Below are positions 2 through 24,537 of a stretch of 64,000 nt of DNA, one piece after another. Source of the DNA: an uncultured Caulobacterales bacterium (GTDB lineage Bacteria; Pseudomonadota; Alphaproteobacteria; Caulobacterales; CAYPOX01); NCBI GenBank assembly GCA_964412525.1, contig CAYPOX010000001.1, forward strand, positions 11,356 to 75,355, read 5' to 3'. The translations under genes and the position numbers were made by a program. The stretch's first letter is position 1. The number at the start of each line of letters is the position of its first letter. Under the pieces are notes generated by a model. That model did not search any database. It saw only the letters and a list, made by a program, of their open reading frames with translations, and had not been told where the DNA came from.

Positions 2-895
2 CCGACGGCGCGGAACTTTACGCTTGGCGCGGCGGCCGACGCTCAAGCGGTCGCCGACGAATTGGCGGCCCAGGGATTTCGAGCCGGCGTCGACTTTTTT
101 TATGATCCAACCGGGGTGGCGCTGCCAGCCAACCAAATCGAGATCGACGTCGTCGCCGGCCGCTTGGAGGTCGACAATTCGATCAGCTTGCAGCGCAACG
201 TGAACGGCAATCCGGCCGTTCAAGACATCGCGGGCGCCGCGGGCGGTCCGCCAACACCGGAACCGACCCAGTCGGGCCTGTTCGTCGTGAATTTCGGCGG
301 CGTGTTTGATCCATTGGACACAGAGGGTGCGAATGCGAATTTCGGGCCCGATGCGGGAGCGTTGCAGCTGCGGGGTTTGGCCGGCTCCATCGCCGTAAAC
401 CTTCCCCAAATCGACCCGGATGCTGGCGGGAATTTTGAGAACATCCGCAATGGCGTTCAGGCGGACGGGGCGGTTGCGCCTTTCCTGGATTCTCAGGACG
501 CCACCCAGTTGCAATTGTTCGCCGACGCTCTCACCGGCGGCGATGTGAACGGCGTCTTGGCCGATCTCGACTACACGATCGGCGGCACGCTTCAGATCGC
601 GCCGGCAGCGGGGCAAGGCTTCTTCGCCCGGAATTTGCCCGTCTCGGGGACAATGCTGGAATTGGCGGACTCCATCGTGAATGTGCAGCAACTGGAGCGG
701 ACGACCATCCAGGAGACCCAGTTCGAACAACAGGCCTTCGTCGACACGCTGCAGGAGCAGCGTCTGAATGAGAACGGCGTCAATGTGGACGTCGAACTCG
801 CCAATCTGATCGAAATCGAAGAGCTCTTCGCAGCCAATTCGCGCGTCATTCAGACGATCGCGCGTCTGCTCGACGAACTGCTCGCCATTCGCTGA
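2..895 (+). CDS. flgK: Flagellar hook-associated protein 1 (FlgK), C-terminal part; 5' end lies outside the window
   Basis: The frame is open from nt 2, with no stop before the track's TTG at 62. The C-terminus NVDVELANLIEIEELFAANSRVIQTIARLLDELLAI fits the conserved FlgK C-terminal helix. flgL follows directly. Confidence 0.8.
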   Translation, partial: PTARNFTLGAAADAQAVADELAAQGFRAGVDFFYDPTGVALPANQIEIDVVAGRLEVDNSISLQRNVNGNPAVQDIAGAAGGPPTPEPTQSGLFVVNFGGVFDPLDTEGANANFGPDAGALQLRGLAGSIAVNLPQIDPDAGGNFENIRNGVQADGAVAPFLDSQDATQLQLFADALTGGDVNGVLADLDYTIGGTLQIAPAAGQGFFARNLPVSGTMLELADSIVNVQQLERTTIQETQFEQQAFVDTLQEQRLNENGVNVDVELANLIEIEELFAANSRVIQTIARLLDELLAIR

Positions 896-906
896 GGGAC
901 TTGAAT

Positions 907-2802
907 ATGGTTATGAATGTCGCCTCGCTGGTTCTCGCTCAGACATCCCGATCCAACATTCTTGGGTTGCAGCGAGACTTGGTCGACGCCAGCCGAGAGG
1001 TCGCCACGGGCTTCCAATCCGATGTCGCCGACTCGCTTCGCGCCGGCCTCAGCGTGTCGCTGTCCTTGCGCGCCGAGTTTTCCCGCTTGGAGCAGCAACA
1101 GGCGAATATCGAGTTTTTCCAGCAGCGCGCCAACATCACCCAACAGGTGCTGACGGATGTTTCCGGTTCGATCACCGATCTGGCGGCCCTTCTGGCCCCG
1201 GCCGGCGCGGATCCGGACTCGCCTCAGGACGGCTTGTTGGCCGGCACGGCGCTCGACACCCTGAACCGCGTCATCAGCAGCTTGAACACGGGCTTCGCCG
1301 GAGATTTTCTGTTCTCCGGCACGACGACCAACATTCTTCCTTTCCAGAGCCCTCAGGTCGGCAATTCTGCGGCGGGCGGCAATTCACCCTTCAGCATCGT
1401 TGAACAACAGCTGAACGGTTTCATCGCCGATCTGGAAGCTGCGGCCGGCGTCGGGCCAGGTTATGTGTTTGGCAGCGCCTATGAGGTGGAGCGCCTGATC
1501 CAAGGCGACGCGTTCTTCAGCAATGGCGGAGCTGCGCCTTCGGCGGCCGGTTTGGAAGGCTTCAACGCCATTTTCAATGATACGTCGCAAAACGCGGATC
1601 GGCTCTATTCCAACGCGTTCTACAATGGCCGTGAGAGCGCACGCGCAGCCGACGTTCTGTTGGAGATCGAGCAATCAGAGGCTGGCTTGTTGGGCGCTAC
1701 GGCTCCAATCACGGGTCTGCTCGATACGAGCGGAGACGGCGCCGTCACGACGGCGGACGGCGCGGCGGCCACCTTTCCGCCGCTTGATTCGTCACCGACG
1801 GCGCGAAAATTCGCAATGGACACGGACAACATTCAATATGTCCGCGACATCCTCTTGGCGCGTGGATTTATTGAGGGCGTGGATTTTGTCGTGAATGGCG
1901 GTCTGACGGAGATCGACGTTGACTTGAATGCCGAGGCCGCCCGACTCACGACCCGACTGAACGACACGGAAGTGCTGGAATACGGCATTGACGGAGCGGA
2001 ACAGGCGTTTCGCGACATCATGCAAGGCCTCTACATGCTGTCCGTTTATGACCTCAGCCTGTTCACCAATCCGGACGGGACAACCAATGACGCGGCGCGG
2101 CAGCGTTATCTGCTTGGCGAGGCGGCGTCTCCGGCGGGCATTCTTGACGCGATCGGAACAATCGATCCGGCCTTGGACACGAATGGCGACGGACGCCTTC
2201 GCCTTGATGACGCGGGCGTCGCTGAGGTGGGCGCTGACGTCCTCACCTTCGATATCGATACGGGCGGCGGCGCCAACGCGGCGGCGATCGCCGCGCAACT
2301 TCGCGCGCTCGGTTTCATCGAGGGTGACACGGGCGCTGGTTTGGGGGATTTGCCGCCGGGAAGTCCGGGGGTTCCCGCGGGCGGCGTTCGCGCCGATTTT
2401 GAAGCACAAGACGTGAGCTTTGTGCGGAACCCGGATGGTACCGGCGCGACGGCCAACCTTATCCGCGTCAGCGTGCGCGCCGAGGCGGCCCCAGAGGGGA
2501 CAGGTCTCGATCTTGCAAACTCGATCAGTTCACCATTGCCGGGTGCGCTTGGATTTTTAGAACGCGGTCTCGATGCGCTGCTGAACCTGCAAACGACCTT
2601 AGGGTCCCGTCAGGTCCAAGTTCAGGATGAGCTCGACACCAACATTCTCCGGCAGGATCTGATCAACACGACAATTTTGCGTGTGGAAGGCGTTGATCAG
2701 GCCGAGGCCGCGACCCGGCTCAATCTGCTGGAAGCCCAGTTGGAAGCCACCTTTGCGATCACGTCGCGGCTTCAAAGCCTTAGCCTGAGCGATTTCCTCT
2801 AA
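907..2802 (+). CDS. flgL: Flagellar hook-associated protein 3 (FlgL), unusually long at about 631 aa
   Basis: GAGGGA lies 7 nt before the ATG at 907. The N-terminus has a flagellin-like helix (LGLQRDLVDASREVATGFQSDV) and the C-terminus has RLNLLEAQLEATFAITSRLQSLSLSDFL. The gene sits after flgK. Confidence 0.8.
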   Translation: MVMNVASLVLAQTSRSNILGLQRDLVDASREVATGFQSDVADSLRAGLSVSLSLRAEFSRLEQQQANIEFFQQRANITQQVLTDVSGSITDLAALLAPAGADPDSPQDGLLAGTALDTLNRVISSLNTGFAGDFLFSGTTTNILPFQSPQVGNSAAGGNSPFSIVEQQLNGFIADLEAAAGVGPGYVFGSAYEVERLIQGDAFFSNGGAAPSAAGLEGFNAIFNDTSQNADRLYSNAFYNGRESARAADVLLEIEQSEAGLLGATAPITGLLDTSGDGAVTTADGAAATFPPLDSSPTARKFAMDTDNIQYVRDILLARGFIEGVDFVVNGGLTEIDVDLNAEAARLTTRLNDTEVLEYGIDGAEQAFRDIMQGLYMLSVYDLSLFTNPDGTTNDAARQRYLLGEAASPAGILDAIGTIDPALDTNGDGRLRLDDAGVAEVGADVLTFDIDTGGGANAAAIAAQLRALGFIEGDTGAGLGDLPPGSPGVPAGGVRADFEAQDVSFVRNPDGTGATANLIRVSVRAEAAPEGTGLDLANSISSPLPGALGFLERGLDALLNLQTTLGSRQVQVQDELDTNILRQDLINTTILRVEGVDQAEAATRLNLLEAQLEATFAITSRLQSLSLSDFL

Positions 2803-2864: not shown

Positions 2865-3596
2865 CTAAGCGGCTGTCGCGTCGGCGATATCGTCTGACGC
2901 GCCGTCGGACGTGGCCTCAACCGGCTCATCGAGCTTGTACCCGCGACCATATACGGTCTCAATATACTGGGCGCCCGCGGTGGCATTGGCGATCTTTTTG
3001 CGAAGCTTGCAGATGTAAACGTCAATTACCTTGTCGAAGGGTTGCGAATCCATCATGCCGTAAACGGCTTCATACACGGAATTCTTCGACACGACCTTGC
3101 CCGCTTGCAACGCCAAATGGGTGAAAATGGCGTGCTCGCGGTGAGAGAGTTTCAGGCGCCGGCCATCCACCTCCGGATCGCGACCGTCGAAATAGACCGT
3201 GAGGCGACCGATCCGCAGACTGGCCGTCACATGGCCGTGGCCGCGGCGGCGAATGGCCTGGATCCGGGCGACCGCTTCGCCAGGATTGATCGGTTTGACC
3301 AAAGCGTCGTCAGCCCCGGAACCCAGAAGCCGGATCACGTCGTCCGAAGACCGAAGATCCAAAAGAGCCAAAATCGGACCACGGAACTCCTCGCCGCGCA
3401 GTCGCTCCACGAATCGCGATTGATCCGCCACGCCGCCGACCAGCACCGCGCATTCTCCACCCGCTTCGCTCTGGCGCGACAACACCGCATCAATGTCCGC
3501 CTCGGACAGCGGCTCGCAACGAACCTTGCTCCGGGCGAGGGCCTTAGAAAGCGCGTCAAAGACGCTGTCTCGCGGTTCGGCCAATAAAACACGCAT
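2865..3596 (-). CDS. OmpR-family, CtrA/FtcR-like winged-helix regulator with a degenerate receiver domain
   Basis: The C-terminus KVIDVYICKLRKKI...IETVYGRGYKL resembles the CtrA DNA-binding domain as I recall it. The N-terminus MRVLLAEPRDS and the strand CAVLVGGVADQ lack the usual acidic pair and phospho-Asp. The gene is divergent from flgI. Confidence 0.75.
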   Translation of the reverse strand: MRVLLAEPRDSVFDALSKALARSKVRCEPLSEADIDAVLSRQSEAGGECAVLVGGVADQSRFVERLRGEEFRGPILALLDLRSSDDVIRLLGSGADDALVKPINPGEAVARIQAIRRRGHGHVTASLRIGRLTVYFDGRDPEVDGRRLKLSHREHAIFTHLALQAGKVVSKNSVYEAVYGMMDSQPFDKVIDVYICKLRKKIANATAGAQYIETVYGRGYKLDEPVEATSDGASDDIADATAA

Positions 3597-5733: not shown

Positions 5734-7293
5734 ATGGGCCAGTGGACAGGCGATTACGTCGTCGACATCGATTATTCAGCGAGCATGTATGAGTGGGTCA
5801 CGCCGCTTCGCATGCATACCCAGTTTCGGCTGGCATACTCCCAGAACGCGCCGGACCCGTTTCGGCCTGGACTTCAAATCGCGGACCTCGCATGCGGGAT
5901 GGGCGTCCACGCATGCATGCTCGCCGCGTGCTATCCGAACGCGCGCGTCTTCGCGTGCGACATCAACCCGCTCCATGTGGCCAACGCGATCGAACTCGCA
6001 CGGGACGCGGAGCTGACCAATATTGATATTGAGCTCGCAAGTTTCGCGGAGATCGCCAATAGAAAAGAAGATTTCCAGAGGCGTTTTGATTATACTTTTT
6101 TGCACGGAGTCTACTCATGGGTCAAAGATAGCATTCGAGAAGATCTTCACAATTTTATAGATTTTGCAATAGCGCCTGGAGGTCTTGTCTATCTTAATTA
6201 TGAATGCTTGCCTGGCGCCGCGGAAGTTGGCGTTTTGAACCGACTATACTCAGAGATCGTGGCCCAGTCGCGTATCGACGCTGGGGCTGATTTGGGCCAA
6301 GACAACGACTTGCTCGATCAATTGGTGGAAACTGGGGCCGGTTACTTTAACAGACTGAAAACCTCAGGCTCGTTCAACGGTTTTAAGAAGGCGACGCCAA
6401 ACTACAGGCTTCATGCGTTTGCGTCGGGCGAAGGGCTGCCGCTTTACTCCTCAAGCGTTATCCGACGGTTCGCGGCGAACGGACTGGCCTATATCGGCGG
6501 CGCAGAGCCCTTGCATGTTCTTGGAGAGTCTTACATCCCGCCGGCGCTCTCTGGCTTGTTGAAGCGGATCCGCGATCGCGCGGCGCGTGAAACCTTCTAC
6601 GACGCTATGACCAATTATGGGGGACGCGGCGACATTTTTGCATTGGGTTCGCGGCCGCTGAACAAAAACCGGATTCGTACGTGGTTCGGCCAACAACGAT
6701 TTATGGCGCGTATGGATACGATCCCCGACCCGCTCACGATCCGGTCGCCATTTGGTGCGCTGAACGTTCAAAACGAACTGTCCGTCACCCTCCATCGAAT
6801 TCTCCGAAACGGTCCGGCGCGGGTCCATGATTTGGCCCAAGCGCTCAACCTGTCCACCAACGATCCGAAACTTCTCAATGCGGTTCGCGTCGGCTATGCG
6901 TCTGGAATCATTGAGGCGGCGGCGGACGAGAAACATGTCGACGCCGCGACGGAGCCGGTCCGTCGGTTCAACCGCGTGCTGGCGGATCGTGTGGCGAACG
7001 GCCATCCGGTGTCCAGTCTCGCAAGCCCTGTGACTGCGACGGCGTCGCCGATGACGCTCGGCGACGTGACAGCGATCGTTTTGGACAGCAGTCACACGCC
7101 ATTGTCGGACAAAACGGTGACGCACGGCTTGCGCCAATTGATTAAGCGGGGCGGCCGAGATCCCGACCAGGTCTTTGACGGCTTTTCTGAAATGGTGCGC
7201 AACAGCGTGGAACGCTATGTGACCGACGGCCATGCGACGCGCTTGACGCGCCTCGGAGTCCTCGCGCCAAATTCGATTTCAACGAACGGATGA
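5734..7293 (+). CDS. Class I SAM-dependent methyltransferase with a long C-terminal (regulatory-type) domain
   Basis: It has the SAM motif I IADLACGMGVHACMLAACYPNARVFACDINP, then FDYTFLHGVYSWV and GGLVYLNYE. The remaining 300-odd residues are uncharacterised. It is the last gene before flagellin. Confidence 0.7.
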   Translation: MGQWTGDYVVDIDYSASMYEWVTPLRMHTQFRLAYSQNAPDPFRPGLQIADLACGMGVHACMLAACYPNARVFACDINPLHVANAIELARDAELTNIDIELASFAEIANRKEDFQRRFDYTFLHGVYSWVKDSIREDLHNFIDFAIAPGGLVYLNYECLPGAAEVGVLNRLYSEIVAQSRIDAGADLGQDNDLLDQLVETGAGYFNRLKTSGSFNGFKKATPNYRLHAFASGEGLPLYSSSVIRRFAANGLAYIGGAEPLHVLGESYIPPALSGLLKRIRDRAARETFYDAMTNYGGRGDIFALGSRPLNKNRIRTWFGQQRFMARMDTIPDPLTIRSPFGALNVQNELSVTLHRILRNGPARVHDLAQALNLSTNDPKLLNAVRVGYASGIIEAAADEKHVDAATEPVRRFNRVLADRVANGHPVSSLASPVTATASPMTLGDVTAIVLDSSHTPLSDKTVTHGLRQLIKRGGRDPDQVFDGFSEMVRNSVERYVTDGHATRLTRLGVLAPNSISTNG

Positions 7294-7311: not shown

Positions 7312-7422
7312 GTTTTAAGTCGACCATGAGACCTTCCGCCAGCGTTTTCCAGGGTAAGCTTGGGGACGCGCGGCGTCAGAAGGCGCTTGTTCAACTCACC
7401 CAGAATCAAGGGAGCACGACAC

Positions 7423-8982
7423 ATGTCGAGCATCATCACCAACGAAAATGCGATCGTCGCGCTGCAAACGCTGCGCTCGGTCACGGCCAACCTTCAAGAG
7501 ACGCAAGACCGCATCTCCACGGGCCTGGAAGTTCGCCAAGCTTCTGACAACCCGGCCTTCTTCCTGGTCGCGAACCAGGTCGGCGGCGACCTCGCGGTCA
7601 TCACCGGCATCCGGGACAACCTGGAGCTGACGATCCAAGCGACGGCGACGGCGCAAAATGCGGCCAGCGACATCTTTGACGAGTTGGAAGCGATCCAGAC
7701 GACGAACGTGACCGCCGACTCCGGCGTTGCGCGCGACGAACTGGCCTTCTCGCTGCAAAACACGGTGTCCTTCATCGAAGGCGTCATCAACACGGCCAAC
7801 TTCGCGGGCAACAACCTGCTGGCGGGCTCCGACACGTTCACGGTCACCACGGCCGTCACGCGCGTCGGCGGCGAGTTCACGCTGTCCACCTTCACGTTGC
7901 AGCGTCAAAACCTCGACGACATCTCCATCGGCGGCGACCAGTTCCTGTCCGCCGGTGCGGGCTCGGACTTTGACTTCATGGTCGGCGCCAATGACGGCAC
8001 GCGTCAAGCGGACGAGCAGTTCTCTGCTCTGTCGCGTGCGTTCCGCGGCGAAGGCTTGGCCACGCAGTTCGACCGCAACAACAATGGCGCGGTTGAATTT
8101 ACGTCCGCTGGCGTCGCCAATGGCGGCGACTTCTTCACCTCCGCGGACGGCATCGCCGGCCTGATGGCGGGCGATCTTGCCTTTGAAGGCTCCCGCGCCG
8201 ATGCGGCGTTCCTTCTTTCGGTCGGCATTCAAGCGACCTTCATCGCGGGCGGTGCGACGGATGAAACGGGCGAAACGATCGACATCGTTTCCTTCGCTCG
8301 TTCCGGTTTGTCGGATCTCAACACACGCACGAATGGTCAAGGCGTCGCCACGTCTGAAGAGTTTGCGTCCGCTCTGGTCGACGCGAACGTCTTCACGACG
8401 GAAGTGTTTGATGCGGCGAACCGTGAAATCCTGAACGCCGACCAAGAGACGCTGTCCTTCCTGGAAATGGCGGGCTTCACGATGGCGGTCCTGACGGGCA
8501 CGACCATCACGCTCGTCTCGGAAGAGTCGCTGTTGACGCCGGCCACGATCGACTTCGCGGGTCAGACGGCGACGGCGTTTGAAACGGCCGCGCAAACCGT
8601 TCTCGAGAACTTCGTTCTCGACAGCGGCCGTTTGCTTGAGCAGGCGGACGCGTCCGGCTTCTCTGGCGTCCTGCGTCAGATCGACATCACGGCCGAAACG
8701 GGCAATGTCGGCTCCGCGATCACGATCTCGGCCAGCCTCGTTGACCGCGCCAACTTGGTCGCGTCGAATGTCGGCACGCTGCAATCCACGCTCGAAGCGC
8801 GTCAGAACTTCCTGTCTGACCTTGCTGACTCGCTCGACGTCGGCATCGCGGCGCTGATCGAAGCCAACCTGGACGAAGAGTCCACCCGTCTGCAGGCCCA
8901 GCAGGTCCAGCAGCAGTTGGCCATTCAGTCGCTCACGATCGCCAACGCTCAGCCGCAGGTTCTCCTGCAGCTGTTCGCGTAA
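7423..8982 (+). CDS. fliC: Flagellin (519 aa)
   Basis: AAGGGAG lies about 8 nt before the ATG at 7423. The N-terminus is MSSIITNENAIVALQTLRSVTANLQETQDRISTGL and the C-terminus is LDEESTRLQAQQVQQQLAIQSLTIANAQPQVLLQLF. The track's start at 7360 is rejected. Confidence 0.95.
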   Translation: MSSIITNENAIVALQTLRSVTANLQETQDRISTGLEVRQASDNPAFFLVANQVGGDLAVITGIRDNLELTIQATATAQNAASDIFDELEAIQTTNVTADSGVARDELAFSLQNTVSFIEGVINTANFAGNNLLAGSDTFTVTTAVTRVGGEFTLSTFTLQRQNLDDISIGGDQFLSAGAGSDFDFMVGANDGTRQADEQFSALSRAFRGEGLATQFDRNNNGAVEFTSAGVANGGDFFTSADGIAGLMAGDLAFEGSRADAAFLLSVGIQATFIAGGATDETGETIDIVSFARSGLSDLNTRTNGQGVATSEEFASALVDANVFTTEVFDAANREILNADQETLSFLEMAGFTMAVLTGTTITLVSEESLLTPATIDFAGQTATAFETAAQTVLENFVLDSGRLLEQADASGFSGVLRQIDITAETGNVGSAITISASLVDRANLVASNVGTLQSTLEARQNFLSDLADSLDVGIAALIEANLDEESTRLQAQQVQQQLAIQSLTIANAQPQVLLQLFA

Positions 8983-9031: not shown

Positions 9032-9081
9032 GAACTCGGCGCAACCAATCGTTAAAATCTTTTCTTTAAGGATGGGTCATT

Positions 9082-9471
9082 ATGAGTGAAGCTTACAGCG
9101 TCGATGCGTATCGCCAGACCATCCGTGAGACCGAAGAACCGCGTAAGGCGGAACGTCGCGTCTTCTCCACCGTCACTGGACAGTTGGAGCGGTACAAGGA
9201 TGCCTTCGCAGGCCGCGATCTTGAAGCGCAAGGCCATCTTCGCGAGGCTTTGGCGAAAAACCGCACGCTCTGGAGCTTGTTGCTCAACGATGTGACCCAC
9301 AATGAGAACGCTCTGCCAAATGATTTGAAGGCGCGGATCATCTCGATCGCCATGTTCGTCGATCGGCACACGGTGAACGTGCTCAAAGGCGAAGGCGACG
9401 TTCACGTTCTCGTCGACGTCAACCGTTCCGTGATGGACGGATTGAAGGCCGCGCAGCCCTCTGAAGACTGA
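9082..9471 (+). CDS. flaF: Flagellar biosynthesis regulator FlaF
   Basis: The sequence AYRQTIRETEEPRKAERRVFSTVTGQL...NRTLWSLLLNDV is typical of FlaF. flbT is adjacent. Confidence 0.85.
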   Translation: MSEAYSVDAYRQTIRETEEPRKAERRVFSTVTGQLERYKDAFAGRDLEAQGHLREALAKNRTLWSLLLNDVTHNENALPNDLKARIISIAMFVDRHTVNVLKGEGDVHVLVDVNRSVMDGLKAAQPSED

Positions 9472-9495
9472 TTTCAAAGCCACCCGCGCGCCGGC

Positions 9496-9954
9496 ATGGG
9501 ACTGAAAATTCGGCTGCGGCCGCATGAAAAAGTCATCATCAACGGATGCGTGGTCGAAAACGGCAATCGCCGCGTCACCCTCAACGTCTACAATTACGCC
9601 CAGATCTTGCGTAGCCGTGACATCATGGCGGAGGCGGACGCCACCACCCCGCTCCGGCAATGCTATTTTCTCCTTCAACTAGTTCTCATTGATCCACGGA
9701 CCCATGACCGATGTTTGAAATGGGTCAGCGGCGTCATCTCACGCGCCTATGGCCTGTTGCGTGATGAGAGCCTGAGACGCCGATTGATCGCGACGATCGA
9801 ACGGGCTCGAGCGCATGATTACTACAAGGCGTTGACCGAACTCAAAGCCGTGATACGCTTTGAAGATGACGAAGGAGTGATTCCGGCTGGCGGCCTGGAA
9901 GCGTTTGCAAGCGTGCTTCAGTCTCTTGGTTCGCCGGCGTTAAATGAGCGGTAG
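9496..9954 (+). CDS. flbT: Flagellin synthesis repressor FlbT
   Basis: The N-terminus MGLKIRLRPHEKVIINGCVVENGNRRVTLNV is the FlbT signature. Confidence 0.85.
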   Translation: MGLKIRLRPHEKVIINGCVVENGNRRVTLNVYNYAQILRSRDIMAEADATTPLRQCYFLLQLVLIDPRTHDRCLKWVSGVISRAYGLLRDESLRRRLIATIERARAHDYYKALTELKAVIRFEDDEGVIPAGGLEAFASVLQSLGSPALNER

Positions 9955-10294
9955 AACCATGGAACCAATGTTGGGCGTAAATTCTGAGGTCACCACCCCA
10001 CAACTGTCGCCAGGCGATCGGTCTGTGGCCACCGGCGCGACGTCTTCGGAACCTTCCACCCTTGCAGGCGCCGGTGTGGTCGCCTTTGACGAGGAAATCA
10101 CAGCGGTCGATGCGGAGCTTGATCGGCCCGATCGGTTCAATCTTCAATTCGAACCGGGCTCGATCCGCATATTTACGGAAGTCTTGGATCGTGACGGCGA
10201 CATCGTCACCCGTATTCCGCCCGCATCGCTGCGGACGGCGCTCGCCGCATTCGGACTGAGCGACGGGCCGTTCAGCGTTCAATCCTTCGTTTAG
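9944..10294 (+). CDS. flaG: FlaG-like flagellar protein
   Basis: The C-terminal segment FNLQFEPGSIRIFTEVLDRDGDIVTRIPP fits the FlaG family pattern (..D..tGevirqIP). It overlaps the flbT end by 11 nt. Confidence 0.6.
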   Translation: MSGRTMEPMLGVNSEVTTPQLSPGDRSVATGATSSEPSTLAGAGVVAFDEEITAVDAELDRPDRFNLQFEPGSIRIFTEVLDRDGDIVTRIPPASLRTALAAFGLSDGPFSVQSFV

Positions 10295-11757
10295 ACCGAC
10301 GCGCCGCCGACCGGCTGGCGGATATCGATCGCTGAAGGGGACGCATCGCCGCCCTGGTCGCCGAAGACGGATTGCACGTCCGCAGTTTCATCAACCGCGC
10401 GTGGCGAGGCTTGAGCAACGCCGTCCGACCCGACGATCTGCGCAAGACGGCGAAACGCCTCGGCCGTGTCGCCGCGTTCCTCCCGGCGTTGGTCGATCAA
10501 TTGCTCCAATCCATCAAAAATTTCGATCGCCCGGTCCGTCTCCGGGTCCGATCCGCGTTTGTACGCGCCGATCCGGATGATCTCTTGCATGTTTTCGTAC
10601 AACGCTTGCGCGCGAATGGCTTTTTCCCGCGCCGCGTTCTCGGCGGGCGAATGGCATTGGGGCAAAGAGCGAGAGATGCTCTTGAGAATGTCGATGGCTG
10701 GAAAGCGACCGCGCTCGGCGATCGACCGACTCATCGCCACATGCCCGTCCAGAATGCCGCGCACCGCGTCCGAAATCGGTTCGTTCATGTCGTCGCCTTC
10801 GACCAAAACGGTGAACACGCCCGTGATGTCGCCTTCATCACCAAACCCCGGACCGGCCCGTTCCAAAAGCCGCGGCAATTCGGAGAAGACGGTCGGGGGA
10901 TAGCCCTTGGCGGTCGGCGGTTCGCCAGCGGTCAATCCAATTTCACGCTGCGCCATCGCGAAGCGCGTGATCGAGTCGATCAGGCATAGGACATGCTTGC
11001 CCAAATGCCGCTGATGCTCGGCAAGGGCAAGGGTGAGGTACGCCGCTTGGCGGCGCATGAGCGGCGGCTGATCGCCCGTGGCCACGACGACGATCGCGCG
11101 CGCGAGCCCTTCTTCACCCAAATCGTCCTGCAAAAACTCTTGAACCTCGCGACCGCGTTCGCCGATGAGGCCGATGATGATCACGTCGGCGTCCGCGTAG
11201 CGCGCGAACATGGAGAGCATCGTCGACTTGCCCACGCCCGAGCCCGAGAACACGCCCATGCGCTGGCCGCGACAGATCGGTGAAAAAAGATCAACGCCCC
11301 GAACGCCGGAACTCATACGAGGGCCGACGGGTCGGCGGTCATAGGCGTTGGGAGGCCGCGATTTCAGCGGCGTCAGATGTTCGCCCTCGGGAAGCGGGCC
11401 TTTGCCGTCGATCGGGCGGCCGAGGCCGTCAATCACGCGGCCGATCCAACGCTCGGACGACCGAATCGTGAAGCTCGTGCCGTCGTAAATCACCGGGCTG
11501 CCGACCGAGACGCCTTCGATCTCGTCCAGGGCCATGAGCAATGTGCGTCCGTTGCGCACGCCGACGGCCTCGCAGAGCACGTGGGTGCCGTCCCGCCGGA
11601 CCGCATAACACTTGTCGCCCATGGCCAGGCGACGCTCCAGCCCGCGGGCCTCAATCGTCATGCCCATGAAGCCGGCCACTTCGCCGCGCCAGCGCGGTCC
11701 TGGCACGGCGGCGACTTCGGCCGCCGCCTCTTCGAAAATGCGGTCCATCGCTGACAT
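10291..11757 (-). CDS. fliI: Flagellum-specific ATPase FliI (488 aa)
   Basis: It has Walker A GVFSGSGVGKST and Walker B DVIIIGLIGERGREV. The start is taken at MSAMDRIF (ATG at 11757). The 804-aa track ORF is an upstream run-on across flgB and flgC. Confidence 0.93.
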   Translation of the reverse strand: MSAMDRIFEEAAAEVAAVPGPRWRGEVAGFMGMTIEARGLERRLAMGDKCYAVRRDGTHVLCEAVGVRNGRTLLMALDEIEGVSVGSPVIYDGTSFTIRSSERWIGRVIDGLGRPIDGKGPLPEGEHLTPLKSRPPNAYDRRPVGPRMSSGVRGVDLFSPICRGQRMGVFSGSGVGKSTMLSMFARYADADVIIIGLIGERGREVQEFLQDDLGEEGLARAIVVVATGDQPPLMRRQAAYLTLALAEHQRHLGKHVLCLIDSITRFAMAQREIGLTAGEPPTAKGYPPTVFSELPRLLERAGPGFGDEGDITGVFTVLVEGDDMNEPISDAVRGILDGHVAMSRSIAERGRFPAIDILKSISRSLPQCHSPAENAAREKAIRAQALYENMQEIIRIGAYKRGSDPETDRAIEIFDGLEQLIDQRREERGDTAEAFRRLAQIVGSDGVAQASPRAVDETADVQSVFGDQGGDASPSAIDIRQPVGGASV

Positions 11758-11827
11758 GTGCGCCCCGTCCCCTGTTGTCCGCGTCACCAAGCCCGACGGC
11801 GACCGCCGAAGCAACCCTTTCGCCCCG

Positions 11828-11839
11828 CGCGTAAAAGCG
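11828..11839 (-). promoter_or_regulatory. Second copy of the 12-mer CGCTTTTACGCG, read on the minus strand, in the fliI/flgB divergent region
   Basis: It is a perfect match to 7300-7311. It lies 71 nt upstream of the fliI start and 60 nt upstream of the flgB start. Confidence 0.45.
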
Positions 11840-11898
11840 TGTTTAAACCATGGCGTGCCATCACGCTGATCAAACACGGGTAAGGGTCGATCGCAAGC

Positions 11899-12294
11899 AT
11901 GTTCATTCCAGGTGTTGAGGTGCTGGGGCTCGGGCGTGAATACATGCGCTATCTCGGGGTGCGCCAAAAAATTCTGGCGGAAAATGTGGCGAATGCGGAC
12001 ACGCCGCAGGCCACGCGGAAGGACTTGGTCAGTTTCACGGACGCATTGCGGACGGTGGCGACGAGTCGTCCGGCCACGACGCATCCAGCGCATTTCGCAT
12101 CCTTGCCGGGCACGCCGGAGTTTCGGGAGAATCGGCGCGCCGAGGGATATGCGCTGGAAATTTCCGAAAACGACATCGTGCTGGAACAGGAAATGGTGGC
12201 GGCGAGCGAAGTGCGCCAGGCTTACGCCATGGCGGCGCGTGTGATGCGCTCCATGACGGATATGATGGGCCGCGCATTCTCGACGCGGTCCTGA
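11899..12294 (+). CDS. flgB: Flagellar basal-body rod protein FlgB
   Basis: It carries RQKILAENVANADTPQ (the rod-protein N-terminal motif) and precedes flgC. Confidence 0.9.
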   Translation: MFIPGVEVLGLGREYMRYLGVRQKILAENVANADTPQATRKDLVSFTDALRTVATSRPATTHPAHFASLPGTPEFRENRRAEGYALEISENDIVLEQEMVAASEVRQAYAMAARVMRSMTDMMGRAFSTRS

Positions 12295-12312
12295 CGGGGA
12301 AGGTGAGCGGTT

Positions 12313-12732
12313 ATGGCGGGCTCTATCGAAGCGGTGATGCAAATCGCGGTCTCCGGGCTTGAAACTCAAAGCTCCCGGATCCGGGTGATCGCGCAAAACA
12401 TCGCGAATGCGGAATCCACCTCGCTGATCCCGGGCGGTGAGCCCTATCGGCGGCAGACCATCTCCTTCGGTGAGGAGTTTGACCGGTCTTTGAACGCGTC
12501 GCTCTCGGTCGTGGACCGGATCGGGCGAGATCAAAGCGATTACACGATCAAATATGAGCCGAGCCATCCGGCGGCCAATGAAGACGGCTATGTCCTCTAT
12601 CCGAATGTGAACCGTCTGATCGAAACGACCGACATGTCTGAAGCGACGCGGTCCTATGAGGCGAACCTTGCGATGGTGGAGAACGCGCGCGATCTCTTCA
12701 CGCAAACTTTGGACCTCATCAGCCGCTTCTAG
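12313..12732 (+). CDS. flgC: Flagellar basal-body rod protein FlgC
   Basis: It has SGLETQSSRIRVIAQNIANAEST and the C-terminal YEANLAMVENARDLFTQTLDL. Confidence 0.93.
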   Translation: MAGSIEAVMQIAVSGLETQSSRIRVIAQNIANAESTSLIPGGEPYRRQTISFGEEFDRSLNASLSVVDRIGRDQSDYTIKYEPSHPAANEDGYVLYPNVNRLIETTDMSEATRSYEANLAMVENARDLFTQTLDLISRF

Positions 12733-13369: not shown

Positions 13370-14047
13370 GTGCCGGGCGCGGGCCTTGTCGCGTTGACGG
13401 CCGCCCTATGGGCGTCGCCGTCGCTGATATCCGATCCTCCCGAAATCGCCTGCGCGCGCGCGGCCGAACGCGCCGCTCGCGTAACGTCCGTGAATGAGGA
13501 GCTTTTGATCAGCATCGGTCTGACGGAGGCGGGGCGGTCCGTGAATGGGGCGCGCGCCGTGATTTGGCCGTGGACCGTGACAACCATCGAGGGCGGCGCC
13601 TATTTCTCGAGCCGGCGCGCGGCTCTGAACGAAGCGATAAGGCTTCGCGACGCCGGCGTCCGTTCCTTTGACCTTGGTTGCATGCAGATCAATTATCGCT
13701 GGCACGGGGACGCGTTTGACGGGCGCCTTGAACGCATGCTCGATCCCGACGCCAATGTTCGGTATGCGGCGCGCCATCTCCACAGCTTAAAAGGCGAGCA
13801 GGCCACCTGGGAAAGCGCCGTTGCGCTTTATCACACGCGCGATGCGGATCGCGGGGCCGCCTACGCTGCGCGCGTCGCGCAGAACCGCGCCTTCGTGGCG
13901 GGGGTGATGAATCCACCTCTCCAACCGGGCGGACACAATCTCTTCGCCAACATATCCCAAGCGGAACCCTTGTTGGAGCCTGCGGGTTTCCTTATGACCA
14001 AGGAATTGAAGCCTTGGCTGCCGGAGTTGGAAAGCCGCGATCTATAA
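13370..14047 (+). CDS. Lytic transglycosylase (SLT-domain) within a flagellar operon
   Basis: It has LISIGLTEAGR (candidate catalytic Glu), FDLGCMQINYRWH and VALYHT. The position is analogous to flagellum-dedicated transglycosylases. Confidence 0.7.
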   Translation: MPGAGLVALTAALWASPSLISDPPEIACARAAERAARVTSVNEELLISIGLTEAGRSVNGARAVIWPWTVTTIEGGAYFSSRRAALNEAIRLRDAGVRSFDLGCMQINYRWHGDAFDGRLERMLDPDANVRYAARHLHSLKGEQATWESAVALYHTRDADRGAAYAARVAQNRAFVAGVMNPPLQPGGHNLFANISQAEPLLEPAGFLMTKELKPWLPELESRDL

Positions 14048-18230: not shown

Positions 18231-18923
18231 TTAGTTCATGTTCACGGCTTCCGCGGCCACGCGGCGACGCTCGCTGATGAAGAGCAGAACTTCGCGGGCC
18301 GTATCCGTGTCCATTTTGTCGATGATCTGGGCGATCTCCCGTTCCTGCATGCGGTCCAGGATGGTCACGATCAACGAGGTTTCCTGTTCGGAGAGAAGCT
18401 CGGCGGCGCGGGCCGGTTTCAGGTCGCTGTAGATTTCGACCAAGCGACGCATGTCGGCGCGCTCCATCTGCTCCAAGCTGTCGATCAAGGCCTGGATCTG
18501 GGCGCGGACATCCGAAAGGCGCTGAACCTCCGCCTGGGCCCGCAGGCGCACCGCCTCCAGCAAGGCTTCGGCGTTTTCAACCTCGGCGGCGCGCCGATCA
18601 ATGGACGCCATCTCGCGGCGGATCAAAGCGAGCGCTTGGGTCGCCTCTTTGTAATCCGTTTCGTCAAAATCGGCGGGCAAGGGCAAGACGCTGGCATCCA
18701 AGCGCTCCGGTGCGGAGGGCTCGCCCGCTTCATCCGTCCCCGAATTCGCGAGATCGCGGGCCCAAGGACGCGAATGGGGCCCAAAACCCGAGGTGTCGCG
18801 ATTGCCGGGCTCTTCGAGGACCGGACTTTGCGCCTGGGCCCGACCCGTGTTGAAGAGGTCCACGGCCTTGAGGGCGGAGGCCGCCACCAATGAGGCGATC
18901 GTCAAAGGAATGATGCGCAGCAT
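18231..18923 (-). CDS. motE: MotE-like / MgtE_N-type flagellar motility protein
   Basis: It has an N-terminal signal or anchor, a coiled coil, and the C-terminal PARAAELLSEQETSLIVTILDRMQEREIAQIIDKMDTDTAREVL. It lies downstream of fliM. Confidence 0.55.
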   Translation of the reverse strand: MLRIIPLTIASLVAASALKAVDLFNTGRAQAQSPVLEEPGNRDTSGFGPHSRPWARDLANSGTDEAGEPSAPERLDASVLPLPADFDETDYKEATQALALIRREMASIDRRAAEVENAEALLEAVRLRAQAEVQRLSDVRAQIQALIDSLEQMERADMRRLVEIYSDLKPARAAELLSEQETSLIVTILDRMQEREIAQIIDKMDTDTAREVLLFISERRRVAAEAVNMN

Positions 18924-18932
18924 GGGCCGATC

Positions 18933-19727
18933 CTATCCGCTTTGTTTCGCTCGCATGTCGGCGAGAAGTTTCTTCAACGCTTGACCTTGCTCCATGGGCG
19001 CCGCGCGCGGCGTTGCGTCAGCGGCGACCAGGGGCGCGCTTGGATCCGCACGTCGCCATTCCGGCGGACGGACAGCGGCGAGATCGGTTTCAGCTTGGAC
19101 CGGAACGGCGTCCGGTTCGGACGCTGGGAGCGCCGCGGCGGCCATCGGTACGACCTCGCGCGGGGCCGGCGCGGGCTCGGGCGCGCGCAAAGGTTCAGGC
19201 GCGCGTGCGGGCTCCTGCATGCGCGCCGGCGCTACGGACTGCGTTCGCGCCTGGGGCGGTCGGGAGCGAGCCGGGGCGGCCGGCTGTGGACGAGGCGTCG
19301 GAGCTGGGGCCGGCGCGGGCTCCGCGGTGCGGACCATGTTGCGCGCGGCGGTTTCCGCATGGCCCTGGGCGACCGCCAAACGCTCGCGTCCGTCGCTGCG
19401 CAAGGCCTCCATGCGCTTGGAGATCCCTTCGCACGCCTTCAACGCAAAGACGAGATCTTGGTGATAACGCTCGGCGGCCTCAATGTCCGCTCTCAGGGCC
19501 GCGCCGGCGGAATGGGCCACCGCCTGCAGGTCGTCCAACGCCTGACGCGAACGGTCGACTTGCTTGGTGAAGTCGTCGAGGAGCCCCTTCATTTCGGCGG
19601 AGCCGCGCTTAAGCGTCTTCAAACGTCCGTTCAATCGCCACAGATAAAACATCGCGCAAACGAGCGCGACGAGGATGACGATGTCCGCGACGCTTCCCGC
19701 GCTGATGTTAGGCGGCCAGATCGTCAT
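18933..19727 (-). CDS. Hypothetical membrane-anchored coiled-coil protein with a Pro/Ala-rich tract, in the flagellar operon
   Basis: It has one N-terminal TM helix (IVILVALVCAMFYLW), a helical region, and then PAPAPAPTPRPQPAAPARSRPP...EPARAPEPLRAPEPAPAP. It overlaps the fliM end by 20 nt. Confidence 0.55.
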   Translation of the reverse strand: MTIWPPNISAGSVADIVILVALVCAMFYLWRLNGRLKTLKRGSAEMKGLLDDFTKQVDRSRQALDDLQAVAHSAGAALRADIEAAERYHQDLVFALKACEGISKRMEALRSDGRERLAVAQGHAETAARNMVRTAEPAPAPAPTPRPQPAAPARSRPPQARTQSVAPARMQEPARAPEPLRAPEPAPAPREVVPMAAAALPASEPDAVPVQAETDLAAVRPPEWRRADPSAPLVAADATPRAAPMEQGQALKKLLADMRAKQSG

Positions 19728-21550: not shown

Positions 21551-23275
21551 GTGAACGAGATTCTTGAACGTCTCAGATCATTGGATCGGACGCGTTTGAT
21601 CGCGTTGGGCGGAATTTTTTTGGTCGTCCTCGCAGCGCTGATCTTATCGGCTTTCTATTTCACGCGCCCGAGCTACGAGGTGCTTTACGCCCAACTTGAG
21701 CCGGCGGAAGGCAGCCGGGTCGTCAACGCATTGGAGGAGATGGGCGTTTCGTCGCGCATTTCCGACGGCGGCGGAACCGTGCTCGTGCCCGCGGGCCGCG
21801 TCGCGCAGACGCGGATGGCGCTCGCCGCCCAGGGGCTGCCGAGTTCGGGAGGCCCCGGCTACAGCTTGTTCGACGACCAGGGCTCGCTGGGCATGACCAG
21901 CTTCATGCAGCAAATCAATCGCCTCCGGGCTCTCCAGGGCGAATTGGCGTCGACGATCGAGACTTTGGAAGGCGTTCGCGCCGCGCGCGTCATGTTGGTG
22001 CTTCCGGAGCGCGAAGCGTTCGCGCGGGAGGTCGCTCAGCCTTCCGGTTCCGTGGTCTTGCGCTTGGATGAGGGCGCAACCCTTGATCGTCAGCAAGCGC
22101 GCGCCATCCAGCATTTGGTGGCGTCATCAGTCGCCGAGTTGGAGCCGCGGCGCGTCACCGTCATGGATTCCACATTGCAGGCTTTGTTCACTGAGGAAAC
22201 CGGGGACAGCGCGCTTGCGGCCGCCGCAGGCGAGATGCGCAGCCAGGTGGAAGCGGACATCGTCCGGAAAATCGAGAGTCTTCTCTTCCCGCGTTTGGGT
22301 CGCCAAAACGTGCGCGTGCGGGTCACCGCGGAGTTGGATTTGGATCGCGAAGTCATCCGCGAGCAGCTCTTTGATCCGGACGAGCAAGTCGTGCGCTCGA
22401 GCCAAACCATTGAAGAGCGCGAATCGTCGACGGAACCGGCGGGCGGCGATGCGGTCACTGTTCAACAGAACCTTCCCGAAGAAGAGGTGGACGCGGCCGA
22501 GCAAGGTTTGGCCCTGTCGAACCTCACCCGTTCGGAAGAGGTCGTGAACTATGAAATCTCAAACGTCGCGCGGGAGACCACCCGCGAGCCTGGATCGATC
22601 GAACGCCTCACGGTCGCGGTCCTGGTCAACGGCACCTATGCGACGGACGAGGAAGGCAACCGGACCTATGTGCCGCGTCCGGACGACGAAATGAACCAAA
22701 TCTCCCAGTTGGTGCGCGCCGCCGCCGGCGTCGACGCGCGTCCCGTGGACGACGGCGGTCGCGGCGACGTCGTCACCGTCGCCAATCTGGAGTTCGTGGA
22801 ACAGGATCTCGACATCGCGCCCGTCGGTCCGACCGGCGTGACAAAGGTGTTGTCCGACAATTTGATGACGATCATCCAGTGGCTCGTGCTGCTCGCGATC
22901 GTCGCTTTGCTGGTCATTTTTGGTCTCCGCCCGGTTTTGGATCGGCTCTTGCCGCCGCCGCCGAGCATCGACGAGGCCGATGACGAGGAGCGCGCCGCCC
23001 TGGCCGCGTTGACCCAGCCGGCCTTGCAAGGTCCGGGCATTGAAGGCGGCATCCCTGGGGTGGCGCCGGCGCTCGGCGAAGGCATGCCGGGCATGGGCCC
23101 GCAAATCGTGCCTCGGGCCCCGATCGACGAGACGCTCGACCAGATGATCGAACTTCGCGCGGTGGAGGGCAAAGTGCGCGCCTCCTCGCTCCTGAAGCTC
23201 AGCCGGATCGTGGACGACAATCCGGACGAAGTGGTCGCGATTCTGCGCAGCTGGATTTATGAGGACGCCGCGTAA
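21551..23275 (+). CDS. fliF: Flagellar MS-ring protein FliF
   Basis: At 574 aa it has an N-terminal TM helix, the YscJ/FliF domain (LYAQLEPAEGSRVVNALEEMGV...) and a second TM helix near the C-terminus. Confidence 0.95.
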   Translation: MNEILERLRSLDRTRLIALGGIFLVVLAALILSAFYFTRPSYEVLYAQLEPAEGSRVVNALEEMGVSSRISDGGGTVLVPAGRVAQTRMALAAQGLPSSGGPGYSLFDDQGSLGMTSFMQQINRLRALQGELASTIETLEGVRAARVMLVLPEREAFAREVAQPSGSVVLRLDEGATLDRQQARAIQHLVASSVAELEPRRVTVMDSTLQALFTEETGDSALAAAAGEMRSQVEADIVRKIESLLFPRLGRQNVRVRVTAELDLDREVIREQLFDPDEQVVRSSQTIEERESSTEPAGGDAVTVQQNLPEEEVDAAEQGLALSNLTRSEEVVNYEISNVARETTREPGSIERLTVAVLVNGTYATDEEGNRTYVPRPDDEMNQISQLVRAAAGVDARPVDDGGRGDVVTVANLEFVEQDLDIAPVGPTGVTKVLSDNLMTIIQWLVLLAIVALLVIFGLRPVLDRLLPPPPSIDEADDEERAALAALTQPALQGPGIEGGIPGVAPALGEGMPGMGPQIVPRAPIDETLDQMIELRAVEGKVRASSLLKLSRIVDDNPDEVVAILRSWIYEDAA

Positions 23276-24108
23276 TGCACGTCCGCGCTTACGCCTTTGA
23301 CCGTCGTTTCGACGACGACGATACGACCCGAAAGGCGCCGCAGCGCGGGCGTTATGAGGCGTTCTCGGACGTGTTCGACGAGGAGGCGCCTCTGCCGGCC
23401 ATGGAGCCGGCGCCGCTGCGCGGGGACGTCGAACCGGCGCCCGCCGCGGTTGAGCCGCCCCCTGTCCCGGAAGATGATCCTGACGCCGAGGATTTGGGCT
23501 CGTTTTTCGACGATCTTCCGCCGAAATCCGAAACGGCGGTCGACGTAGAGGCGGTTCGCTCGGAGGGGTTTGAGGCCGGTCGGGACGCAGGTTACGCCCA
23601 AGGCTTCGCAGACGGCCGCCGCGAAGTGGCCGAGGGCCAAGAGGCGCGCGCCGTCGAAGCGATCGCCGCCATTGCGGAAGGGCTTCCGAGCGCCCAGTCC
23701 CAGTTGGACGCCTTGTTGGAGCGGGCGGAACGGCGCGCCACGCGTTTGGCGCTGGCGGTGATCCGTCGCGTCGCGCCCGCTTTGGATGAAGCGTTGGCGC
23801 AAGACCACGCCGCCGCCATTGTGAAAGAGGCGGTGCATGCGGGGCGTGCGGCTCCGGAACTGACGGTGCGCTTATCTCCGGAATTGGCTGCGGCACTGGA
23901 GCCGCGAATCGAATCCATACGCGACGCGGCGGCCGGCAAGACGGTTTTGCACGTCGAAGTGGAAGAGTCTGCGGGTCCTGGCGCCGTCAAGGTGTTGTGG
24001 GAGACCGGCGGTGTGGAGTACGACGTGTCCTCGGCGTCGAAAGCGATCGAAGACTTGATCGCGCACGCGGAGGAAGCGACCGCGCGTGCGGCCTGGGAAA
24101 CGCCCTAG
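23275..24108 (+). CDS. fliH: FliH-like flagellar assembly protein
   Basis: It has EAVRSEGFEAGRDAGYAQGFADGRREV, the FliH/YscL-type motif, and sits between fliF and fliN. Its ATG overlaps the fliF TAA. Confidence 0.65.
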   Translation: MHVRAYAFDRRFDDDDTTRKAPQRGRYEAFSDVFDEEAPLPAMEPAPLRGDVEPAPAAVEPPPVPEDDPDAEDLGSFFDDLPPKSETAVDVEAVRSEGFEAGRDAGYAQGFADGRREVAEGQEARAVEAIAAIAEGLPSAQSQLDALLERAERRATRLALAVIRRVAPALDEALAQDHAAAIVKEAVHAGRAAPELTVRLSPELAAALEPRIESIRDAAAGKTVLHVEVEESAGPGAVKVLWETGGVEYDVSSASKAIEDLIAHAEEATARAAWETP

Positions 24109-24152
24109 GTCGTCGTCGCGAAGGGGATTGGTAAGGGGCTAGGAGCTGTCAG

Positions 24153-24506
24153 ATGAGCGACATGCGCGACGTTCCGCTTGAGGAACTGACGCCGGATCAA
24201 GCGGCGGACTACGGCGGTGCGGATCGGGGGCAAGCCGACGACGAAACGGTGATGGCGGATCGCATGGCCGCCCTCTACAACGTTCCCGTCGACATTCAGG
24301 TCGTGCTGGGGACGGCGTCTTTGCCGGTCAATCAGCTTTTGAAGTTGGGGCGGGGCGCCGTCGTCGAGATCGACCGCAAGGTCGGCGAGGCGGTCGACAT
24401 CCATATCAACAATCATTTGGTCGCGCGGGGCGAGGTCGTGATCGTCGAGGACAATCGGCTCGGCGTGACGCTCACGGAAATCGTGCGCGCCTTGCCGCCG
24501 ACCTGA
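24153..24506 (+). CDS. fliN: Flagellar motor switch protein FliN
   Basis: It carries the SpoA domain VPVDIQVVLGTASLPVNQLLKLGRGAVVEIDRKVGEAVDIHINNHLVARGEVV. Confidence 0.93.
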   Translation: MSDMRDVPLEELTPDQAADYGGADRGQADDETVMADRMAALYNVPVDIQVVLGTASLPVNQLLKLGRGAVVEIDRKVGEAVDIHINNHLVARGEVVIVEDNRLGVTLTEIVRALPPT

Positions 24507-24537
24507 GGGCTCGCGTCGCGGAGAAGGCCGCTTGACC

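Follow-up and report, generated by a model that had tools for sequence, protein, structure and literature searches.

The outer domains of flagellar axial proteins are variable and more and more often turn out to be functional, with roles such as adhesion, enzymatic activity and filament stiffening, and the junction proteins are far less studied than the flagellins. The junction protein FlgL consists of a constant helical domain D1 and, in some species, a variable domain D2 exposed outside the junction; this D2 resembles the D2 of FlgK, and reinforcement of the junction has been proposed (PMC6155364). We analysed the flgL gene in a stretch of 64,000 nucleotides (nt) from an uncultured Caulobacterales bacterium (contig CAYPOX010000001.1, positions 11,356 to 75,355 of the forward strand), called the window below, with positions counted from its first letter. 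What distinguishes this case is a new module without homologues that is duplicated into two sites of FlgL, has a truncated third copy, is common to FlgL and FlgK, and carries the full Dx[DN]xDG...D12 ligand set in both FlgL copies.

Ca2+ binding by loops of the Dx[DN]xDG type is known from 16 or more unrelated folds, whatever the flanking secondary structure (PMC3123361). Serine can take the place of the second D, a documented variant that ligates Ca2+, and an additional acidic ligand is always found later in the chain (PMC3123361). The motif easily originates de novo, new motifs have been fixed mostly in extracellular proteins, and the binding conformation is not open to every occurrence (PMC3123361). 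The FlgL considered here very probably carries, on the outside of the hook-filament junction, a folded decoration domain that is specific to its lineage. The overall best explanation, for which we see about even chances, is a decoration of this kind in which the loop of each FlgL copy is most plausibly a structural Ca2+ site.

FlgL and its two insertions

The flgL gene (907..2802, plus strand) was assigned from the list of open reading frames (ORFs), Pfam and NCBIfam matches and a database identity. The ORF encodes 631 amino acids (aa) from the ATG at 907 and 633 aa from the TTG at 901, and the database protein P0001 is identical to the 631-aa form; residues are numbered here from the TTG. The product is a genuine FlgL (hook-associated protein 3) with the conserved D0/D1 helices intact. 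Flagellin_N matches residues 9-143 with 47 bits (cut-off 26.6) and Flagellin_C matches residues 557-631 with 34.5 bits (cut-off 23). The top NCBIfam matches are FlgL models, the alpha-proteobacterial PRK06008 of 348 positions (E 1.2e-37, 130 bits) and TIGR02550. Both score under their cut-offs (230 and 127 bits, respectively), because the middle region has no alignment.

The gene lies directly 3' of flgK, with the C-terminus of flgK ending at nt 895 and flgL starting at 901 or 907. The surrounding flagellar cluster contains genes for an OmpR-type regulator, a rod-binding protein, a methyltransferase and flagellin, together with flgI, flgN, fliI, flhA, fliR, flhB, fliF and fliG. A gene-model artefact such as a frameshift fusion was ruled out: both termini are in one frame, and the GC content of the three codon positions in the insert (0.68/0.50/0.68) is coding-like in the flgL frame. 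Long, Arg-rich antisense ORFs overlap flgL, among them 1792-2409 on the minus strand (the lengths are 205 aa and 116 aa). They are regarded as the usual by-product of about 61% GC and not as genes.

An earlier note on this DNA had put FlgL at about twice its expected size, and this is borne out by the relatives. The nearest detectable FlgLs have 334-351 aa and show 26-37% identity in the best local BLASTP segment. The FlgL of Oleisolibacter albus, the only match in the GTDB genome scan, has 349 aa and is encoded downstream of a 474-aa FlgK. The protein from the window is about 280 residues longer. The extra sequence is in the middle of the protein, and the term insert, used in the note, is imprecise for it. 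Alignment with six ordinary FlgLs resolves two insertions, roughly at residues 250-355 and 400-540, with one module copy in each.

The insertions flank a conserved core helix (residues 357-384, EVLEYGIDGAEQAFRDIMQGLYMLSVYD, 1969..2052, plus strand), which was delimited by the alignment and by the predicted local distance difference test (pLDDT) scores of AlphaFold2. This helix, EVLEYGIDGAEQAFRDIMQGLYML, aligns with all six FlgLs of 334-351 aa and is the sole segment of the middle region with moderate AlphaFold confidence (pLDDT about 67). The single weak match in a tblastn search against plasmids (E 0.01) also links the core helix, not the module, to an Azospirillum flagellin gene.

The duplicated module

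The two FlgL segments are clearly related, as the earlier note had stated. BLASTP between the two halves of FlgL gives 35% identity over 77 aa (E 2e-6). The Smith-Waterman score of the halves is 72, compared to 33.5 +/- 6 in shuffled sequences, and was reached in 0 of 2000 shuffles. With the upstream sequence included, residues 235-326 align with residues 387-475 at a score of 77 (z-score 7.6, again 0 of 2000 shuffles). Thus the repeated unit has about 90 aa and starts about 40 residues ahead of the loops discussed below, instead of the approximately 50 aa proposed initially. Copy 1 is LYSNAFYNGRESARAADVLLEIEQSEAGLLGATAPITGLLDTSGDGAVTTAD...NIQYVRDILLARGFIEG (residues 235-326, 1603..1878, plus strand) and copy 2 is LFTNPDGTTNDAARQRYLLGEAASPAGILDAIGTIDPALDTNGDGRLRLDD...AAAIAAQLRALGFIEG (residues 387-475, 2059..2325, plus strand); each was delimited by Smith-Waterman and BLASTP comparison with the other. 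The segments quoted in the note are translated exactly: nt 2176-2325 encode DTNGDGRLRLDD...LRALGFIEG (residues 426-475), and nt 1723-1875 encode DTSGDGAVTTAD...LLARGFIE (residues 275-325). Only the end of the first segment has to be moved one codon downstream, as the final G of its motif is encoded by nt 1876-1878. At the DNA level, about 45% of the aligned columns match (94 of 211 are invariant), and thus the duplication of the module in FlgL is old.

Copy 1 is followed by a predicted beta-hairpin, VDFVVNGGLTEIDVDLNAE (residues 327-345, 1879..1935, plus strand), seen as low-confidence strands in the AlphaFold2 models. Copy 2 is followed by a Gly/Pro-rich linker that is predicted to be coil (residues 476-503, 2326..2409, plus strand). 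Behind the linker there is a truncated third copy (residues 504-546, 2410..2538, plus strand), pointed to by the 15-residue repeat window DLSLFTNPDGTTNDA / DVSFVRNPDGTGATA and delimited by Smith-Waterman comparison with copy 2 (score 50, z-score 4.1, 5 of 2000 shuffles). It consists of an NPDGT turn and the first helix of the module without the loop part, and continues into the C-terminal D1 helix. The pattern A[RL]GF[IL]E occurs three times in FlgL: as ARGFIEG at the end of copy 1, as ALGFIEG at the end of copy 2, and as ALGFLERG at the start of the D1 helix.

The module is new and an orphan, with no homologues in the databases searched. Full-length FlgL retrieved only itself in a word-indexed search of 5.8 billion clusters, and so did the 400-aa insert in a phmmer search of 1.84 billion representative proteins. 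A profile of the two copies had no match in the word-indexed search at E<=10. Two metagenome scans, one using the alignment of the module and one using the complete protein, had no match either, and the GTDB genome scan recovered only the C-terminal helix of the O. albus FlgL.

AlphaFold2 gives a mean pLDDT of 48 for full-length FlgL with a 7-sequence alignment, and of 37.6 for the module with both copies aligned. The secondary structure is alike in both runs: helices are followed by the loop, which is coil, and then by a short strand, a helix with GFIEG at its end, and the hairpin. This agreement is only a hint at the fold of the module. One could suppose that the insert is largely a disordered, low-complexity spacer, whose repeats arose by replication slippage in a tolerant region. 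The insert is rich in A, G, D and T, the linker at residues 476-503 is of the Gly/Pro type, pLDDT falls below 50 throughout, and the searches returned no homologues. On the other hand, any orphan sequence that lacks an alignment would be expected to have a low pLDDT, and the predicted helices and hairpins are consistent between the two models. Moreover, copies that are old by their DNA divergence still keep the hydrophobic patterns, the GFIEG motif and the loop, and a second protein, FlgK, keeps the same module. A spacer of this kind is quite improbable.

A copy of the module in FlgK

The window starts within flgK, of which the C-terminal 297 codons are present (2..895, plus strand), recognised by Flg_bbr_C and the C-terminus of the FlgK model TIGR02492. 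The first approximately 55 residues of this fragment (nt 2 to about 166) comprise the second half of a copy of the module and then a hairpin, PTARNFTLGAAADAQAVADELAAQGFRAGVDFFYDP... A hidden Markov model (HMM) built from the two FlgL copies alone matches FlgK at E 4.8e-6 and matches no other of the 413 ORFs of the window. In the Smith-Waterman alignment with FlgL copy 1, FlgK PTARNFTLGAAADAQAVADELAAQGFRAGVDFFYDP is paired with FlgL PTARKFAMDTDNIQYVRDILLARGFIEGVDFVVNG (z-score 4.9, 2 of 2000 shuffles). The hairpin follows the copy in both proteins, VDFVVNGGLTEIDVDLNAE of FlgL being aligned with GVDFFYDPTGVALPANQIEIDV of FlgK. The copy fragment reads PTARNF...AAQGFRAGVDFFYDP, and its loop-bearing half is outside the window.

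The remainder of the FlgK fragment has a long, non-conserved middle, rich in Gly, Pro and Asp, ahead of the conserved C-terminal helix. A possible second copy in this fragment (residues 102-158, LDTEGANANFGPD) has an independent E-value of 0.033 with the HMM, but the pairwise z-scores are only 1.9 and 0.7, and it is not claimed here.

The flagellin gene of the cluster (7360-8982, plus strand; probable start ATG at 7423) is also oversized, with 519-540 aa compared to 313 positions in the best NCBIfam model, PRK12687. No Pfam family matches the middle region of this flagellin at E<=10; an EF-hand-like string, DRNNNGAVEFTS, occurs there once, at nt 8071. The presence of the same module in this protein, considered on account of the strings DRNNNGAVEFTS and RTNGQG, was ruled out: the Smith-Waterman z-scores are -0.5 and 1.2, and there is no HMM match.

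Candidate calcium-binding loops

Each complete FlgL copy contains a 12-residue loop: DTSGDGAVTTAD in copy 1 (residues 275-286, 1723..1758, plus strand) and DTNGDGRLRLDD in copy 2 (residues 426-437, 2176..2211, plus strand). They share the pattern L-D-T-[SN]-G-D-G-x-[VL]-x-x-x-D. The translation confirms the residues listed in the earlier note for both loops: D at position 1, S or N at 3, D at 5, G at 6, a hydrophobic residue (V or L) at 8, and an acidic residue (D) at 12. The linear motif D-x-[DN(ST)]-x-D-G is satisfied exactly by DTNGDG of copy 2, and by DTSGDG of copy 1 with Ser at the second ligand position. The candidate for the downstream acidic ligand is Asp at position 12 in both loops, and copy 2 also has Asp at position 11.

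A relaxed form of the loop pattern is expected 0.011 times per protein of the FlgL composition. Among 20000 shuffles of FlgL, 216 contained one match and 3 contained two or more. The two loops are copies of each other, and thus they represent one event followed by retention rather than two independent events. In the six frames of the window, these two loops are the only matches to the strict pattern, and such loops were not found in the ordinary FlgL relatives or in FlgK and FlgL of O. albus. Between the copies, 7 of 13 positions of the loop (-1 to 12) are identical, compared to 24 of 82 in the rest of the module. The difference is a weak hint at retention of the loop.

The similarity of the loops to those of EF-hands was considered separately. 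Strings of the form DTNGDG[RK][LI] and LRxLG are found repeatedly in polcalcin-type EF-hands. When the two-copy profile was compared with the sequences in the PDB, 15 of the 18 best matches were EF-hand proteins (secretagogin, CaBP1, polcalcins, CALML5), and some of these alignments (polcalcin, CALML5) span both loop-like elements of the module. The second of these elements, DIDTGGGANAAA in copy 2 (residues 451-462, 2251..2286, plus strand), was located by the sub-threshold HMMER alignment to the second loop of EF-hand pairs. Its position 12 is Ala, and ligands are missing both there and at position 5. Its counterpart in copy 1 is DTD with a 3-residue deletion (nt 1819-1845), and the FlgK copy, FTLGAAADAQAV, has no acidic residues at this position. 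The second element is not expected to bind metal.

These matches could be taken to mean that the module is a highly diverged EF-hand pair or a dockerin-like domain, acquired by domain shuffling and serving in Ca2+ sensing or protein docking. However, none of them passes the threshold. The loop-to-loop spacing is 32 residues in copy 1 and 25 in copy 2, whereas the paired loops of calmodulin are 36 residues apart. Flanking helices would be interrupted: Pro or Gly occurs at -3 to -7, Gly or Ala-Gly at +13/+14, and in copy 1 the loop is further followed by Pro-Pro at +19/+20. Around the loops, AlphaFold2 shows a helix before and coil after, at pLDDT below 50. The consensus of type I dockerins, a duplicated D-x-N-x-D-G-x-[IV]-[ND]-x-x-D loop followed by a helix, is not matched either, given Thr or Arg at position 9 and, in copy 1, Ser at position 3. 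To judge from these features, from the PROSITE and Pfam results given below and from the degenerate second element, the module is not a recognisable EF-hand domain or dockerin, and descent from one is highly improbable. Of the EF-hand or dockerin interpretation in the earlier note, the relaxed ligand pattern stands, and a canonical domain finds no support.

A generic Dx[DN]xDG site is a different matter. The sequence is compatible with Ca2+ binding by these loops, which we consider a real possibility, somewhat short of an even chance; as a whole, the calcium or EF-hand reading of the loops remains unproven. Several observations weigh against calcium-binding, folded modules. The PROSITE EF-hand pattern PS00018, used as a regular expression, matches neither loop: loop 1 fails at position 13 (G), and loop 2 fails at positions 9 (R) and 13 (A). 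A Pfam search gave no family, whether EF-hand, dockerin or other, for either module or for the 400-aa insert at E<=10, with the proviso that HMMER filters may hide very weak matches. The PDB matches of the module profile are all sub-threshold (E 0.08-3) and driven by the loop itself. Position 12 is Asp instead of the usual bidentate Glu, and position 9 is Thr or Arg. In both AlphaFold2 runs pLDDT is below 50 over the whole insert and is 27-47 at the loops, so no coordination geometry can be read from the models, and an insert so rich in Ala, Gly, Asp and Thr could be partly disordered. No orthologous insert in which the conservation of the loop positions could be compared was found in the collections searched. 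Finally, by raw counts the loop is only slightly better conserved than the rest of the module, and a chance loop (about 1% per protein) copied by duplication would look alike.

The last point leads to an explanation that we rate as plausible, if less than probable. The module would be real, and the loops would be ordinary Gly/Asp-rich turns without metal, a chance string that was copied and then kept for its turn geometry (LDTxG) in folding. The expected frequency of the relaxed loop, in about 1% of proteins with the composition of FlgL, agrees with this, as do the failure of PS00018, the absence of a Pfam EF-hand or dockerin match, the helix breakers on the flanks of both loops and the clear degeneration of the second element (Ala at position 12; the deletion in copy 1). 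Some Dx[DN]xDG motifs also cannot take the binding conformation (PMC3123361). On the other hand, the canonical ligand positions 1, 3, 5 and 12 and Gly6 are kept in both copies, while elsewhere in the module identity has fallen to about 29%. The domain would also be extracellular, where such loops usually bind (PMC3123361).

Possible role of the modules

Taken together, the structural-site explanation can be described as follows. Two lineage-specific insertions, which flank the core helix, have enlarged the variable middle of FlgL, a part that would face outwards. Each insertion carries one copy of the module of about 90 residues, which derives from an old internal duplication and is predicted to mix helices and strands; a truncated third copy lies just ahead of the C-terminal D1 helix, and at least one more copy is present in the adjacent FlgK. 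The modules, presumably exposed on the surface, most probably form a folded decoration or collar outside the hook-filament junction. By analogy with the related D2 of FlgL in Xanthomonas and of FlgK in Burkholderia, contacts between the copies of the two proteins could reinforce the junction. The loop would be a generic structural Ca2+ site of the Dx[DN]xDG type that aids the fold and its rigidity after export of the unfolded chain to the calcium-rich exterior. Nothing suggests a signalling role for the loops.

In a stronger version, the module of FlgK and FlgL would be calcium-dependent: it would fold only in the calcium-rich exterior, after export through the channel, and would then fix the two junction proteins in a rigid outer collar. 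This is unlikely. If true, it would be a new coupling of flagellar assembly to the ionic environment.

A FlgK/FlgL module that has retained loops of the calcium type would offer a tractable example of a decoration stabilised by metal, at the joint of the flagellum that is under the greatest mechanical stress. For now, the insertion is a lineage-restricted orphan in a region that is expected to vary, and the calcium claim rests on a 12-residue motif. The observation is relevant to those who study the flagellar junction and the evolution of the Dx[DN]xDG motif, and does not touch on any major open question. It would gain importance if calcium truly controlled the folding or stiffness of the junction.

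Other genes of the window

A gene for an OmpR-type regulator (2865-3596, minus strand) is divergently placed between flgL and flgI. It has a Trans_reg_C match of 69 bits and a weak, partial receiver-domain match below the cut-off (18 bits). Presumably it is similar to FtcR-type proteins, which are atypical master regulators of flagella.

The flagellin gene is separated from flgN by a gene for a 519-aa S-adenosylmethionine-dependent methyltransferase with a MethyTransf_Reg domain (5734-7293, plus strand). This enzyme may modify flagellin. A protein with 90% or more identity to it is present on a short Logan contig, and it was the only non-singleton among six window proteins in the cluster look-ups.

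The fliI ORF (10291-12705, minus strand) encodes 804 aa, with the N-terminal barrel of the ATPase beginning at about residue 360 and the nucleotide-binding domain at residue 466. About 330 N-terminal residues have no family match; they are either a real extension or fusion, or the result of a start codon called too far upstream.

Six ORFs have weak or no Pfam assignment (MgtE_N-like, DUF6468, none): 9052-9678, 18231-18923, 18933-19727 and 24105-24767 on the minus strand, and 13370-14047 and 23275-24108 on the plus strand. All of them are in the flagellar cluster and may encode components of the flagellum that are specific to this lineage.

Comparison with known systems

In the literature searched, no paper links the outer domains of FlgL or flagellin with EF-hand loops, and the earlier opinion that calcium-type loops would be unusual in a junction protein holds. 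Compared with canonical EF-hand pairs (polcalcin Phl p 7, CaBP1, secretagogin, calmodulin-like proteins), the FlgL loops fit at positions 1, 3, 5, 6, 8 and 12, whereas the module appears to lack clean flanking helices, has short spacing and has a degenerate second loop. The likeness to the Dx[DN]xDG loop family is closer: copy 2 has the exact linear motif, copy 1 has the Ser variant, an acidic residue follows downstream, and the protein is extracellular. However, this family is defined by the conformation of the metal-bound loop in structures, and the comparison made here is one of sequence.

Flagellinolysins, which have a metalloprotease domain in the hypervariable region of flagellin (PMC7643111), provide a precedent for folded metal-binding domains in the hypervariable region of flagellar axial proteins. 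They differ from the FlgL considered here in being flagellins and in having another fold, zinc and a catalytic role (PMC7643111).

Large FlgL proteins are represented in NCBIfam by PRK08412 (827 positions), PRK14692 (749 positions) and PRK12717 (524 positions), in which the middle is likewise expanded. Given these models and the variable D2, an enlarged FlgL is a known phenomenon. The three models match the FlgL from the window over the terminal helices only (11-27 bits compared to cut-offs of 407-878), and the present insert is unrelated.

The best PDB sequence match of this FlgL, 5yti, covers the C-terminal helix only. This structure, FlgL of Xanthomonas campestris, and 4UT1, FlgK of Burkholderia pseudomallei, resemble the present case in that an accessory domain, D2, is placed within the helical D1 region, and in that related domains occur in FlgK and FlgL, as with the module described here. 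Unlike D2 of these proteins, the insert has two insertion points instead of one, and it has no sequence similarity to D2. Finally, the module is duplicated, carries Dx[DN]xDG loops and is predicted, at low confidence, to have a mixed helix/strand fold, whereas D2 is a beta-sandwich.

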